Assembly: GCF_003790525.1 (NCBI RefSeq)
Contig: NZ_CP033636.1
Strand: one strand, 5' to 3'
DNA length: 64,000 nucleotides
Origin: Escherichia coli
Lineage (GTDB): Bacteria > Pseudomonadota > Gammaproteobacteria > Enterobacterales > Enterobacteriaceae
Shown: piece after piece, positions 3,951 to 30,476 of the stretch
Layout: each line of letters starts with the position of its first letter
How positions within the stretch are numbered: the stretch's first letter is position 1
Made by a program: the position numbers and the translations under genes
The notes under the pieces: model-generated
Told to the model about the DNA's origin: nothing
Databases searched by the model: none
The model's input: the letters and a program-made list of their open reading frames with translations, nothing else

Positions 3951-4282
3951 TCCTACCATTGCATCCGGAAATTAAACGGGCAGGAACTGCACTGTATGTT
4001 CCGACCAAGCAGCTGCCCGTTACCCTTTTCTTTAGTGTAAAAAGACTGTCTCCGACAACCGGAAGTGACTCATGTCAAATAAATTATAAATCAATGATTT
4101 ATGCAGGCAGGGTGTTTGGCTGATCAGGGCAGAGTGATATAATGACGCTGGTGCTGGAGGCTTTTGCCCCAGCCAGCGGTAACACTGTTTGACTGTGGTA
4201 AAAGCAGAAAGCCCCGAGTAATTTTTCAATTAACCTGTACTGCACCCATTTTGTTGGACGATGAAATGGAATAGCCCCTGAT

Positions 4283-4804
4283 ATGTCAAAGCCAAAATAC
4301 CCTTTTGAAAAGCGCCTTGAAGTCGTGAATCACTACTTCACTACTGATGATGGTTACAGGATCATCTCGGCACGTTTTGGTGTCCCCCGAACCCAGGTCA
4401 GGACATGGGTTGCCCTCTATGAAAAACATGGAGAAAAAGGTTTAATTCCCAAACCTAAAGGTGTTAGTGCTGATCCTGAGTTGCGTATTAAGGTCGTGAA
4501 AGCGGTGATCGAGCAGCACATGTCCCTTAATCAGGCTGCTGCTCACTTTATGCTTGCTGGTAGTGGTTCTGTAGCCAGGTGGCTGAAGGTTTATGAAGAG
4601 CGCGGAGAAGCTGGTTTACGCGCGCTCAAGATTGGCACCAAAAGAAACATTGCAATATCAGTTGATCCAGAAAAAGCGGCATCAGCATTGGAGCTGTCAA
4701 AAGACCGACGCATTGAGGATCTTGAAAGGCAAGTTCGATTTCTTGAAACGCGGCTTGTGTATCTAAAAAAGCTGAAAGCCTTAGCTCATCCCACGAAAAA
4801 GTGA
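4283..4804 (+). CDS. insJ: IS150 transposase OrfA (InsJ, 173 aa)
   Basis: Protein MSKPKYPFEKRLEVVNHYF... recognised as IS150 OrfA; A AAA AAG slippery motif at about 4765-4771. Confidence 0.85.
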   Translation: MSKPKYPFEKRLEVVNHYFTTDDGYRIISARFGVPRTQVRTWVALYEKHGEKGLIPKPKGVSADPELRIKVVKAVIEQHMSLNQAAAHFMLAGSGSVARWLKVYEERGEAGLRALKIGTKRNIAISVDPEKAASALELSKDRRIEDLERQVRFLETRLVYLKKLKALAHPTKK

Positions 4805-26763: not shown

Positions 26764-27030
26764 GACGCCTCCTGATGTGAAATTACTATACCGGAGGAAA
26801 TTTCCGTTTTTTTTCACGAACAGAAGATTTTTGAATGCTCTTTGATGAGGGAATTGAACAGATGTAATGCACTCGCTGTTTCCCCCATTCGGGAGGGGCC
26901 TTCAGAAACAGTAACAGCGAGTTTAGCCTCACTTCCATCGCTACCCTCTAAAGTTACTTTTGAGGGAATGACCATTGTGGATTATTGCTTTTGATAATGT
27001 GCATTGCTCTATTAAAGTTATACATATATC

Positions 27031-27194
27031 TAGTGCCACTTTTCCAAAAAAAATGACCCTATGGAACTTTGTCCATAGTGACACTTTTATAAAAAGTGAC
27101 CCTATGACGACATTACATAGGGTCACTTTTCAAACATAAGTGACCCTATGTGAGGTATTCATAGGGTCACTTTTCTTTGTTTAGTGATCCTATG
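27031..27194. promoter_or_regulatory. oriT-like region: array of three inverted-repeat pairs plus extra half-sites, consensus half-site CATAGGGTCACTTTT
   Basis: AATGACCCTATGG-N8-CCATAGTGACAC; AAAAGTGACCCTATG-N9-CATAGGGTCACTTTTC; ATAAGTGACCCTATG-N7-CATAGGGTCACTTTTC; lies between divergent transfer operons. Confidence 0.55.
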
Positions 27195-27521
27195 TAAGCA
27201 TGAGGTTGATGAAAAGTAAAAATGTCAGTTTATGACGGTCAGTGAAAGACGTCGTTATTCTAATCCAACGTTGGGAGGGGCTGGATTTAGGTTTTTTTTT
27301 AATCGCTTCACATTTCGTTAGCATGCGAAGAAATTTTGATAAAATTCTGGTCAGTTTGGTTAAAAAGTGTTACAAGTAAGCGGTGTGGTTGAAGGGATAG
27401 ATTTAAGGCTTATTCAAGCCTTAAGAAAATACTAAAAGTTACTTTTCACCCTACCGAACACCTAACAAAAAATCCATGTTGAAGATTTGAACAATTGTAA
27501 TGGCGCAAGGACAATCAGCAC

Positions 27522-28322
27522 ATGTCAGAATCTGATAATTTAACTCGTAGCTTACTCGGTAAACTTTTCCGCACTGAGATTTCGCTTATTCGTAGTTACC
27601 GTGCATTTTTAATGTTATTGCCTGTGCATGGATCTTCTGCATATCAAACTGGGACTCCTCTTCTCCAGCGTCGCCTATTTGGGAAAGGATTTAGTACAGC
27701 CGCTGATTTAGCTTTTGAAGTGGAAACACGTCCAGGTAGTTTTTTGGTTCCGCGTACACTCGGAAAGGAAATTACATGGGAGAGGTTTTTTTCTGCGGTC
27801 TTGGACGGTGATTCCAATGTAATTCGTGAATATGATACAAATGATATTGACTATGGTATTTACGATGCCGGTGAAAAAGTGACTTTTCTGAATGGTACAG
27901 TGGATATCTATAATCCCAAGAAGATTCATGAGTTGCGTTCTAAATGTGTTGATATACAGAATGACTACTTTATGCAGGTGTTCTTTATCTCAATGCTCGC
28001 ACCAGAGTTTGTAAGTGTTTTCTTTGGTTTAAAACCAACTACAGCTGATGCTATTAAAGACATTGGTTATTCATCGTTAAAAACAATTAACGATGTCGTT
28101 CTTTTCCCACGTACAATTGCTTTCTCACAAGGGCATATTGAAGAGAGTGTTTCACTTAAAACGAAAGTTTTTGCCTGGGCTTATGAATTGTCTGCTGACA
28201 TCCGGTTAGGAAAAGTTAGTGATGATTTGATGGAACTATTACGTTATGACACTATGTTCACCAGTCACCGTCAGGATGTGTTCAACACTTTAACAAATAA
28301 AGTTATGTTAAAGGATTATTAA
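27522..28322 (+). CDS. hypothetical protein (266 aa), possible transfer regulator (TrhR-like?)
   Basis: ORF track; first gene rightward of oriT-like region; identity not verifiable from sequence alone. Confidence 0.4.
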   Translation: MSESDNLTRSLLGKLFRTEISLIRSYRAFLMLLPVHGSSAYQTGTPLLQRRLFGKGFSTAADLAFEVETRPGSFLVPRTLGKEITWERFFSAVLDGDSNVIREYDTNDIDYGIYDAGEKVTFLNGTVDIYNPKKIHELRSKCVDIQNDYFMQVFFISMLAPEFVSVFFGLKPTTADAIKDIGYSSLKTINDVVLFPRTIAFSQGHIEESVSLKTKVFAWAYELSADIRLGKVSDDLMELLRYDTMFTSHRQDVFNTLTNKVMLKDY

Positions 28323-28323
28323 T

Positions 28324-28836
28324 ATGGCAAAGGTCGATCAAACAAAAGCTAATGCTCTATTGCGAGCAGCAAGGACTATGTCGCTTGGGGCAAATAAAAA
28401 TACAATACGAATTTTGTACGGTAATCATGTTGCTGAAAATATCGATTTTGAGCCTGGTGCAAAAACAAAACTCAAAAAAGGTATCCGGGGCTGGAGCAAA
28501 CGCACAGATAACCGCCGAGCTTTTTCTGCTGTTATTGATGTCGCAGTTAACTATTTTGGTTTTGATCCAATAAATCCGGAAGCGAGTTTTCGGCAAATTG
28601 ACTTCAACCGAATAATGAGTGTCCTTCATAATCTGGGATACTTTGTATGCGCACCGGAAGTTAATAAAATAATAGAAATCCTTACTTCTATGAAAGAAAT
28701 TGAAGAACTAGGTGCCTGCGAAAAATGTAAACGCCCATACATTGTGCCAGTGACAAATGATGCTTATTGTCCACGTTGCAGATTATCTTCAACTGCTTCA
28801 GCCATAGAGAGGTATTCTCAAGAAGAATTAGATTAA
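28324..28836 (+). CDS. hypothetical protein with C-terminal Cys4 zinc-ribbon-like motif (170 aa), possible TrhY-like
   Basis: CEKCKRPY...CPRCRL; start 2 nt after upstream stop. Confidence 0.4.
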   Translation: MAKVDQTKANALLRAARTMSLGANKNTIRILYGNHVAENIDFEPGAKTKLKKGIRGWSKRTDNRRAFSAVIDVAVNYFGFDPINPEASFRQIDFNRIMSVLHNLGYFVCAPEVNKIIEILTSMKEIEELGACEKCKRPYIVPVTNDAYCPRCRLSSTASAIERYSQEELD

Positions 28837-29429
28837 ATTTAAAAAAGATATCGCGAAACTTGCCTTGTCTGAATCTAAATATTGACTTAAGTCAAATTCT
28901 GTTGTTTGCTTTACAATCAAATATTAGTTACAACTTAAATATTAACTCTTGACAAGTAAAGATATAATTTGATTTTTCTTTATACAGTCTTTCTTCGTTC
29001 CAAAAAATGTTCACCTTTTTTTCTGTTGAAAACGTAAAACTACTTAGGTTCTCTAAAACCTTCTATGCATGACGACTTCTTAATCGCTTTCAATTAATAT
29101 ATTTTATATTCTTGCCTAAGTTCGCTTCTTTGATCCTTAGCTATTCCTTCTTTGAAATATAGAAACAGCGTTACTGGTGATGATTTTTTTCAGCTCTTAA
29201 TACACCTGTTTTCAAAGCAATATTTGCTTTTAGATATTCGATAAAACCATGTTTTTGTTACACCGGATTTTTCACAATGTGCAAGATGGATGATCTTTCC
29301 ATCACCGAGACTATCTTCTTAGTCAGCACTCCTTTTCCGTCCTTTTCAACATAAAAACGACCATGCTATACGAGCTCTAACCTTTTTTTTGTATGCCATC
29401 ATAACCGCATCAGAAAAGGAGAACGGTCT

Positions 29430-30476
29430 ATGACTCGTATTGCATTAGCGCCTTCAAAGATGGTTTTGCTTATGTCTTTGGTAATTACTGGTGCCCACGC
29501 CAGCCCTGAGCAACCCCTAATAAAAGATACGCCCTTTGTATCAGGCCAGGCTTATAAGAAGGGTTTCTTCTGGTATGACGATCCTGCTAAAAAAAGCGAA
29601 GCTGAAGAAGAAAAGGTTTTGCCACCAACCGGTGCTGCTAGCTCGCCTTCAAAAGAGGAAAAGGTAGATTTAAATTCAAAATGGCTAAAAGAGAATATGC
29701 CTCGACTGTTAACGCAGGCAATGGATAACCCTACCGCAGAAAATCTATCACGTTATTACACGGCGCAAAGGTTAATGCTGGATATCAGTACGCGTTTTTC
29801 TGACAAATCAAAAGATTATTTTCTTAAAAACCCGATGATGTCTGAAAAACGCAGGCAACCAGTGGAAAAGGTGGCACTGGATGCTCACCGCACTGTTGTT
29901 GAAAAAAATCAGCAAACGGTAATGAAAGATATCTTTACTAAGTCAGGTTTATTTTTCTTTTTCCAGAGTACTTGCCAGTTTTGCCACGAAGAGAGCCAAA
30001 TACTTCAATTTATGCAGAACTATTATTCGGTAGATATTCTTCCAATCAGTATGGATGGAAGGCCATTGCATAATGGCCTTTTTCAGGATTTTAACATCCC
30101 CAATGCACAAATTATTGATCAATTTAAAATTCGAGAGGTACCTACAATTTTCCTGGTTTCAAAGGATGGGACATCAGCTCAGCGCATTAGTGAAGGCATG
30201 ATCTCCGCTGATGAATTAAAGAACACTATTATACTTGCCGCGAAGGGCATGAATCTGATCGATGACGCTTCGTTTCAGTCAACTCTAGATATTAAAAGGC
30301 AATATACCATCGGTGATGATGGCGTTATTACCGTTAATAAATCCGAAATGGAATCAGACCCATTCTTACTTCAAAAAATAATGGACCAAAAACTCGAAGG
30401 CTATGACATGCCTACGGCCGATCCGGTCAATTATCTCAATGCTGGCGGCAGTTTTGGAGGCACTTATGCGCAGTAA
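29430..30476 (+). CDS. trhF: TraF/TrbB-family thioredoxin-like conjugal transfer protein with CxxC motif (TrhF-like, 348 aa)
   Basis: Signal peptide; GLFFFFQSTCQFCHEE...VPTIFLV resembles F-plasmid TraF/TrbB thioredoxin fold. Confidence 0.55.
   Translation: MTRIALAPSKMVLLMSLVITGAHASPEQPLIKDTPFVSGQAYKKGFFWYDDPAKKSEAEEEKVLPPTGAASSPSKEEKVDLNSKWLKENMPRLLTQAMDNPTAENLSRYYTAQRLMLDISTRFSDKSKDYFLKNPMMSEKRRQPVEKVALDAHRTVVEKNQQTVMKDIFTKSGLFFFFQSTCQFCHEESQILQFMQNYYSVDILPISMDGRPLHNGLFQDFNIPNAQIIDQFKIREVPTIFLVSKDGTSAQRISEGMISADELKNTIILAAKGMNLIDDASFQSTLDIKRQYTIGDDGVITVNKSEMESDPFLLQKIMDQKLEGYDMPTADPVNYLNAGGSFGGTYAQ

Follow-up and report, generated by a model that had tools for sequence, protein, structure and literature searches.

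The spacer between trhY and trhF in IncHI2 plasmids: a probable two-part regulatory region with a candidate promoter in its last 90 bp

The 593-bp spacer between the genes trhY and trhF, the subject of this analysis, lies in a stretch of 64,000 nucleotides (nt) from Escherichia coli (contig NZ_CP033636.1), referred to below as the window, which corresponds to the transfer region Tra1 of an IncHI2 plasmid. A megablast search with positions 28300-29500 matched 960 PLSDB plasmids at 95-100% identity; all of them are predicted to be conjugative, they are mostly 200-390 kb in size, and their hosts are Escherichia, Enterobacter, Salmonella and Klebsiella. A fully identical record is typed as IncHI2A / MOBH / MPF_F. 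The local gene order starts with the genes for a traD-like coupling protein and the mobH relaxase, a hypothetical gene and mobI on the minus strand. After a gap of about 700 bp come a gene of 266 amino acids (aa) and one of 170 aa; beyond the 593-bp gap lie a traF-like gene of the thioredoxin family, trhH and a traG-N gene. The IncHI1 plasmids R27 and pHCM1 have the same order: mobI, trhR, trhY, a gap of about 600 bp and trhF-trhH-trhG. The spacer and the genes around it are as follows:

27522-28322, plus strand: trhR, an open reading frame (ORF) of 266 aa encoding one of two activator subunits (R operon)
28324-28836, plus strand: trhY, 170 aa, encoding the second activator subunit, with cysteines C132xxC135...C149xxC152 and a predicted FlhC-like fold
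28837-29429, no strand: non-coding spacer from the R operon to the F operon, 593 bp
29430-30476, plus strand: trhF, encoding a TraF-like thioredoxin-fold mating-pair formation (Mpf) protein; opens the F operon, ahead of trhH and trhG

The proteins encoded on either side of the spacer are closely related to those of R27/pHCM1 (aa identity of 77% for TrhR, 85% for TrhY and 84% for TrhF), and the 266-aa gene already bears the name trhR in some RefSeq records. In the R27 numbering, R0123 and R0124 are the activator genes trhR and trhY of the R operon, and R0126 is trhF, at the start of the F operon (PMC7366339). Given these counterparts, the gene referred to in the preliminary description of this DNA as a Cys4-ribbon gene is trhY, an activator of the operon lying beyond the gap. 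The names in use clash to some extent: the PGAP annotation gives the name TrhF to a 170-aa gene of Tra2 located upstream of trhW (10873-11385 in the R27 Tra2 stretch, 13803-14315 in the IncHI2 Tra2 stretch), and the Tra1 trhF of the R27 literature is annotated merely as a thioredoxin family protein.

Transfer of plasmids of the IncHI family is thermoregulated in an H-NS/Hha-dependent manner (PMC7366339). In R27, pBAD-trhRY strongly induces a chromosomal fusion of the F promoter to lacZ, at 25 as well as at 37°C, and HtdA represses this fusion at 25°C; trhF is 6.5-fold up at 25°C and 27-fold up in an htdA mutant, and silencing of trhR expression by H-NS has been reported for 37°C (PMC7366339). 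The IncHI2 plasmid type has the full TrhR/TrhY/HtdA set, with trhR and trhY inside the window and htdA encoded in Tra2. The whole R27-type circuit is thus encoded, and the earlier suggestion of a regulated promoter region for trhF-trhH-trhG was, therefore, right in kind: the spacer has the position of the R27 F-operon promoter region, within the same gene order, and is the IncHI2 version of that region. A literature search for IncHI2-specific work on the trhF promoter found nothing.

The spacer is the exact interval between the trhY stop (28836) and the trhF start (29430), and the same 593 bp are unannotated in the RefSeq records of identical plasmids. It is, as first described, an AT-rich untranslated gap, with a GC content of 32% versus 47.6% for the window, and its first half corresponds to the AT-richest 300 bp of the 64 kb (28813-29112, 74% AT, above the 99.8th percentile). 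The spacer is at least 97.6% identical in 956 of the 960 matching IncHI2 plasmids. Greater distances were covered by an alignment of the window with a second IncHI2 sublineage (pC45-VIM4, p12949-HI2), IncHI1 (pHCM1/R27) and a third lineage, pLEC-7c0d. Nucleotide identity in the genes is about 75-85% between HI2 and HI1 and about 90% between HI1 and pLEC; it drops to 20-45% over 28837 to about 29340 and is regained in the last ~90 bp (29340-29429), where it reaches 65-70% between HI2 and HI1 and 77-97% between HI1 and pLEC. A blastn search with the spacer gave no IncHI1 match. Conservation in related plasmids, then, fails for about 85% of the region and holds for the last ~90 bp. Between the two IncHI2 sublineages the gap has 13 differences, all within 28943-29278 and none in 29340-29429; their density of 2.6 per 100 bp, versus 0.4-0.8 in trhR, trhY and trhF, indicates that the distal part evolves faster than the flanking genes. 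The length of the gap is alike in the three lineages (593, 611 and 615 bp, with 593 bp in IncHI2 and 611 bp in R27 of IncHI1). The following features can be recognised in the part next to trhF:

29340-29429, plus strand: block conserved in the lineage alignment, candidate TrhR/TrhY-dependent F-operon promoter and leader
29371-29377, plus strand: CGAGCTC (CGAACTC in pLEC-7c0d) at the would-be -35, a possible activator contact suggested by the alignment
29383-29390, plus strand: T8 tract, kept as T7-8 in IncHI1, pLEC-7c0d and IncHI3-type plasmids
29392-29403, plus strand: invariant TATGCCATCATA, the same in HI2, HI1 and pLEC
29394-29402, plus strand: candidate extended -10, TGcCATCAT, inside TATGCCATCATA, with a predicted start at about 29409
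29416-29421, plus strand: Shine-Dalgarno (SD) sequence AAGGAG, 8 nt ahead of the trhF ATG

CGAGCTC, the T7-8 tract and TATGCCATCATA are common to IncHI2, IncHI1 and pLEC-7c0d, with the SD sequence following them, and IncHI3-type plasmids have T8-ATGGGATGATAAT at an equal distance from the traF start. TGcCATCAT consists of TGn and a hexamer with A2 and T6; its IncHI3 counterpart would be TGgGATGAT or, alternatively, GATAAT. The hexamer 17 bp upstream of the candidate -10 is GCTCTA, which is no -35, and CGAGCTC lies 17-23 bp upstream of it. This anatomy, lacking a -35, is as expected of an activator-dependent promoter; footprinting over a few lineages would place its start at about 29409 and give it a leader of about 21 nt. 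TATGCCATCATA is unique in the window: no other place, such as the H promoter, gave a meaningful match. Another possible -10, TGcTATACG (29364-29372), was discarded for lack of conservation, IncHI1 having CGTTAC-CG instead.

Several points argue against placing the promoter here. The candidate -10 was assigned by footprinting over only 3-4 lineages, CATCAT fits TATAAT at 4/6 positions, and the conservation of the proximal block may reflect an mRNA leader element, not a promoter. No box common to the F promoter and the other TrhR/TrhY-dependent promoters (H, AC, AN and Z) rose above shuffled controls, the top information content obtained by greedy motif discovery over these five IncHI2 promoters being equal to that of the controls. 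Comparison with the AcaCD sites in PMC4207636 and with the dyad upstream of IncC traF revealed no likeness to an AcaCD box in 29340-29429. The published effect of H-NS in R27 concerns trhR expression, with no demonstrated site at the F promoter (PMC7366339). By eye, a run of 7-8 A or T bases is present at all five promoter regions (F, H, AC, AN and Z) in IncHI1 and IncHI2, and this tract is too low in complexity to be counted as evidence. At the H and Z promoters, 16-18 bp separate the end of the A/T run from a -10-like hexamer downstream of it (TATAGT, TATCAT/TAGTAT). This comparison covered Tra2 of IncHI2 and R27 and positions 26764-26900 of the window.

The palindrome singled out in the preliminary description lies towards the opposite end of the spacer, where the following features can be recognised:

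28813-29112, no strand: AT-richest 300-bp segment (74% AT), a candidate for H-NS/Hha binding by virtue of its composition
28882-28895, no strand: palindrome TTGACTTAAGTCAA, IncHI2-specific and at chance level
28942-28968, plus strand: best sigma-70-like match of the spacer, TTAACT-15-TATAAT, from a position weight matrix (PWM) scan, not positionally conserved
28948-28957, no strand: insertion site (target duplication) of the insertion sequence (IS) IS1 in the natural plasmid pCFSAN086836
about 29134-29140, no strand: insertion site of ISKpn26 (IS5-like) in the natural plasmid p4281_EMB

The 14-bp palindrome TTGACTTAAGTCAA, first placed at about 28883-28896, is real and perfect, lies one base further left than described, at 28882-28895, and is unique in the window. 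Its frequency is that of chance: when the 593 bp are shuffled with dinucleotides preserved, 7% of the shuffles contain a perfect palindrome of at least 14 bp, and in the window as a whole 4.2 palindromes of this kind are expected and 4 are present (the longest being the 16-bp TGGCAAAGCTTTGCCA at 1909-1924). As it is at chance level and has no counterpart at the aligned position in IncHI1 or pLEC-7c0d, it is not supported as a regulatory element. The reported -10-like hexamers do exist (TATAAT at 28963-28968, TACAAT at 28912-28917), but with no properly spaced -35/-10 pair on the plus strand: a two-hexamer promoter scan of 28300-29900 gave no plus-strand site and 1 site in all versus 4.4 expected, and a perfect TTGACA (28949-28954) and TATAAT are merely 8 bp apart. 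No consensus sigma-70 promoter was found on the plus strand of the spacer, the PWM candidates were not positionally conserved across lineages, and the sigma-70-like match at 28942-28968 is probably a spurious or silenced promoter. The distal hexamers cannot be supported as the operon promoter, because they lie in a part that is unconserved, fast-evolving and interrupted by ISs. A search for direct repeats or iterons in the spacer returned just short two-copy chance families, and no repeat family was found in the 593 bp. The functional part of the spacer is most likely the trhF-proximal 90 bp, and not the area of the palindrome and TATAAT.

It is very unlikely that the palindrome, TTGAC-N4-GTCAA, is the operator of a dimeric regulator (of the FNR/CRP family, or a plasmid repressor) controlling a distal promoter with a leader of ~450-520 nt into trhF. 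The FNR consensus is TTGAT-N4-ATCAA, and the palindrome fits it at 8/10 positions with the TTGA-N6-TCAA core intact; apart from being perfect and unique in the window, it is invariant in both IncHI2 sublineages, and its half-site is also a 5/6 -35 hexamer (TTGACT) with TACAAT/TATAAT 17-68 bp downstream. However, besides occurring at chance frequency and having no counterpart in the alignment with IncHI1 and pLEC-7c0d, it is centred 35.5 bp, and not 41.5 or 61.5 bp, away from the start that TACAAT would give, no other -10 is suitably placed, the distance between TTGACT and TACAAT is 24 bp, and the IS1 of a natural plasmid lies between the palindrome and trhF. Anaerobiosis had no effect on R27 transfer according to the citation of Alonso 2005 given in PMC7366339, though R27 does not have this site.

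The preliminary description also allowed for unannotated small genes in the gap, and a gene for a small protein or small RNA, such as R0125 of the original R27 annotation between trhY and trhF, could be hidden there, but this is most improbable. There are short ORFs at 29152-29244 (30 aa, TTG start) and 29277-29354 (25 aa, ATG start), with two of 28-30 aa on the minus strand, and the R27 numbering jumps from R0124 to R0126. However, all of these ORFs lack conservation in IncHI1 and pLEC; in the other IncHI2 sublineage the 25-aa ORF has ACG in place of its ATG, ahead of which there is no SD sequence, PGAP annotates nothing there in the IncHI2, IncHI1 (including R27) and pLEC-7c0d records examined, R0125 is missing from the tables of expressed R27 genes, and the gap has no Rfam match.

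The distal ~500 bp are, from their composition, most likely a spacer silenced in the manner of H-NS/Hha. DNA with 74% AT over such a length is expected to bind H-NS in enterobacteria, and the H-NS binding proposed earlier for this region is plausible from its extreme AT content. Extreme AT-richness, badly spaced hexamers, fast divergence and IS insertions are all as expected of H-NS/Hha-coated DNA, and H-NS-bound regions are reported to be transposition hotspots (PMC11335895). A point on the other side is that the one match to the H-NS motif TCGATAAATT, at 29238 with 2 mismatches, is weak and not informative. Other ISs were seen in these plasmids: one further record has an IS1A across the trhF match, and many IncHI2 plasmids have IS5-family elements within the matched htdA-parM-Z-operon stretch of Tra2.

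The distal region may equally be neutral decayed DNA that is passively coated with H-NS. A stronger form of this idea, which is possible and which we regard as the less probable account, is that the ~500 bp are functionless decayed DNA, for example after the loss of an IncHI3-type ORF, with an AT-richness due to mutational drift and no role as a silencing platform. IncHI3-type plasmids have a 180-aa ORF and a 365-bp gap between the trhY homologue and traF, at the same place as the spacer, the gap lengths of 593, 611 and 615 bp are alike even though the sequence is near random, the substitution rate is above that of the flanking genes, and IS insertions are tolerated. On the other hand, tblastn found no remnant of the IncHI3 ORF in the gap (best E >0.1), and the gap was rejected as such a remnant; decay is, furthermore, compatible with passive H-NS coating and not opposed to it. 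The IncHI3 180-aa ORF (4051-4593 in the pSYCC1_tmex_287k stretch, 4044-4586 in the pNUITM-VR1_1 stretch) has no Pfam or NCBIfam family, and only non-coding DNA of similar length is present at its position in IncHI1 and IncHI2.

The proximal block can also be considered as RNA. Two segments on either side of the trhF start can pair with one another:

29363-29374, plus strand: 5' arm of a stem, pairing with 29434-29445, about 60 nt upstream of the ATG
29434-29445, plus strand: 3' arm of the stem, in trhF codons 2-5

The T8 tract, candidate -10, SD sequence and ATG all lie between the two arms. IncHI1 and pLEC retain this stem, in which two pairs are compensatory. The minimum-energy folds of positions -72 to +21 relative to trhF contain the same outer stem, with z-scores of -2.9 for IncHI2, -2.5 for IncHI1 and -0.5 for pLEC. 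Over the three lineages, 82% of the cells are paired, versus 24-38% in slid controls, and two pairs are changed on both sides. The SD sequence is itself paired inside the stem, through CCUUUUUU with AAAAGG in IncHI2 and CCUC with GAGG in IncHI1. This evidence, drawn from three lineages, is suggestive only. With a start at about 29409, the stem is possible only on RNA begun upstream, which can be envisaged since no terminator was found after trhY, and the stem might silence the translation of read-through or spurious transcripts.

A different weighting of the same observations would make the proximal block mainly an mRNA leader, with transcription starting further upstream (from a lineage-specific promoter or by read-through from trhR-trhY) and with the stem and anti-SD (CCUUUUUU with AAAAGG) gating trhF translation. 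The lack of a terminator after trhY, the z-scores of the IncHI2 and IncHI1 folds, the excess of paired cells with its two compensatory pairs and the sequestration of the SD sequence by different anti-SDs in IncHI2 and IncHI1 all speak for such a leader. We nevertheless consider it unlikely: only three lineages are involved, two of them close, the observed covariation was reached by 46/500 shuffles, the pLEC fold is not significant, IncHI3 has no such stem, and RNAalifold over five sequences gave -3.4 kcal/mol, without this helix and without a consensus structure. A hairpin that sequesters the SD sequence would favour expression at 37°C, which is opposite to IncHI thermoregulation, and the invariant TATGCCATCATA lies in the loop, where it is unexplained by the fold. 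The z-score of -1.95 for the fold of the whole 609-nt spacer was based on just 20 shuffles and is not informative, and no Rfam match was found in the spacer at E up to 1, the scan of the window giving just spurious miRNA-like matches in repeats of the putative origin of transfer (oriT; see below).

The candidate promoter in the proximal block raises the question of the type of activator to which TrhR and TrhY belong. They have so far been described as a "novel" IncHI-specific activator pair without detectable homologues, and neither matched a Pfam or NCBIfam family (for TrhY, this includes the absence of a match to Pfam FlhC). With 29 representatives in a set of 1.84 billion proteins, the TrhY family is very small. 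A relationship to FlhC was tested because MOBH/MPF_F relatives use the FlhDC-like activators AcaCD/SetCD and because TrhY has a C-terminal CxxC...CxxC. Single-sequence AlphaFold modelling of TrhY was unusable (predicted local distance difference test score, pLDDT, of 40), and a 13-sequence alignment yielded a model with a pLDDT of 70.8 and a predicted template modelling score (pTM) of 0.62. The top Foldseek matches of this model in the PDB were two FlhC chains of the Cupriavidus FlhDC complex (8j56), in full-length alignments (probability 0.6/0.47). An hhalign comparison of the TrhY profile with an AcaC/FlhC profile was collinear over 131 columns, with the four cysteines in register (E 0.0011), and in a comparison of the TrhY profile with a single FlhC sequence the Cys4 region alone was aligned (E 0.031). 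The gene order, larger subunit then Cys4 subunit, is the same in trhR-trhY as in acaD-acaC. The case is weakened by a TrhY model of just moderate confidence, by the weak Foldseek E-values (0.38-0.62), by an hhalign probability of 20% for TrhY against AcaC/FlhC, and by the comparison of the TrhR profile with the AcaD profile, which gave E 0.039 and a probability of 1.3% over 54 columns only. A literature search found no paper naming TrhY together with FlhC, AcaCD or SetCD.

The traFHG module of IncC and SXT is driven by an AcaCD/SetCD-dependent promoter of its own, with an activator box in place of the -35 (PMC4542580, PMC4207636), and these class II promoters make a class II mechanism the most economical model for the trhF promoter. 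A more ambitious proposal, which we put forward tentatively and with less than even confidence, is that TrhR/TrhY would be a very diverged IncHI counterpart of AcaCD/SetCD, with TrhY as the FlhC-like zinc subunit, binding over CGAGCTC and the upstream block at a class II trhF promoter without a -35, and that the stem and anti-SD would in addition keep read-through and spurious transcripts untranslated, so that only transcripts started at the promoter would be translated.

Two further observations concern the surroundings of the trhR-trhY pair. Direct and inverted repeats of GTGACCCTATG / CATAGGGTCAC, such as AAAAGTGACCCTATGACGACATTACATAGGGTCACTTTT, are clustered at 27040-27200, in the gap between mobI and trhR, and give spurious matches to miRNA hairpins in Rfam; this cluster is probably the oriT or relaxosome binding region of IncHI2 Tra1. 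Several plasmids of 90-120 kb have a frameshifted or truncated trhY, which suggests that they are decayed, non-self-transmissible IncHI derivatives. One of them, pF801-2, is typed as IncHI1B and has an IS21-family element downstream, with no trhF annotated within the stretch examined.

These results point, with fairly good confidence, to a regulatory spacer in two parts: a TrhR/TrhY-dependent promoter in the proximal ~90 bp, and ~500 bp of distal, AT-rich, H-NS/Hha-coated filler without a sequence-specific operator. In this model, the spacer would be regulatory DNA separating the trhR-trhY activator operon from the trhF-trhH-trhG operon for mating-pair formation, and positions 29340-29429 would carry the real operon promoter, with no -35, the weak extended -10 TGcCATCAT, a start at about 29409 and a leader of ~21 nt with AAGGAG. 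By analogy with the orthologous R27 F promoter, it would fire only when TrhR/TrhY is available and would be kept down by the anti-activator HtdA. Given the FlhC-like fold predicted for TrhY, activation would probably resemble that by FlhDC, AcaCD or SetCD, with a heteromeric activator over the -35 region (class II). The remaining ~500 bp, to which the palindrome and the TATAAT-like hexamers belong, would be fast-evolving AT-rich filler, most likely coated with H-NS/Hha, and a coat of this type would suppress spurious promoters and read-through and make the distal DNA a landing pad for ISs. The context, conservation, composition, chance statistics, IS insertions and TrhY fold were computed here, and control by TrhR/TrhY and HtdA is taken from the R27 literature; we infer the exact -10, the start site, the activator contact and the occupancy by H-NS.

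IncHI2 plasmids are major carriers of mcr-1, mcr-9, extended-spectrum beta-lactamase and carbapenemase genes. Their transfer is switched on via TrhR/TrhY, and the trhF promoter is the standard R27 read-out of that circuit. A candidate promoter narrowed down to ~90 bp is a concrete target for mutagenesis and reporters in IncHI2, and the conspicuous palindrome and TATAAT boxes are probably irrelevant. The leads are the 90-bp promoter block with the stem that brackets it and the FlhC-like nature of TrhY; if the link to FlhC is true, the MOBH/MPF_F resistance elements of the IncHI, IncC and SXT/R391 groups would be united under one ancestral activator type.

The closest known system is the F-operon promoter region of R27. 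The two regions have the same place in Tra1, from trhY to trhF, in gaps of 593 and 611 bp with flanking proteins that are 77-85% identical; the last ~90 bp are common to both (CGAGCTC, the T-tract, TATGCCATCATA and the SD sequence), and IncHI2, too, has htdA. They differ in that about 500 of the 593 bp are unalignable, at 20-45% identity, the palindrome and the TTGACA/TATAAT hexamers are found in IncHI2 only, and promoter activity is known for R27 alone. The distal part resembles the H-NS/Hha-silenced intergenic regions of acquired DNA in its extreme AT content relative to its surroundings, its badly spaced promoter-like hexamers and its IS insertions; occupancy is predicted here from composition, and the H-NS target named for R27 in the literature found is trhR expression only. 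The third comparison is with PtraF of IncC and SXT/R391. The trhF block does not have the AcaCD-like GC-rich dyad present upstream of IncC traF (GCGCCCTAAATGGGCGC), the gap is ~110 bp in IncC versus 593 bp here, and, unlike in IncC/SXT, the IncHI target operon comes immediately after the activator genes. What the two systems have in common is the set of downstream genes (traF/trhF, traH/trhH and traG/trhG) in an MOBH/MPF_F element with mobI, the lack of a recognisable -35, and the dependence, predicted from R27 for the trhF promoter of IncHI2, on a two-subunit master activator encoded with the larger subunit first and the Cys4 subunit second; the likeness to AcaCD/SetCD extends, in the model of TrhY, to FlhC as its best structural match and to a profile that is collinear with that of AcaC.

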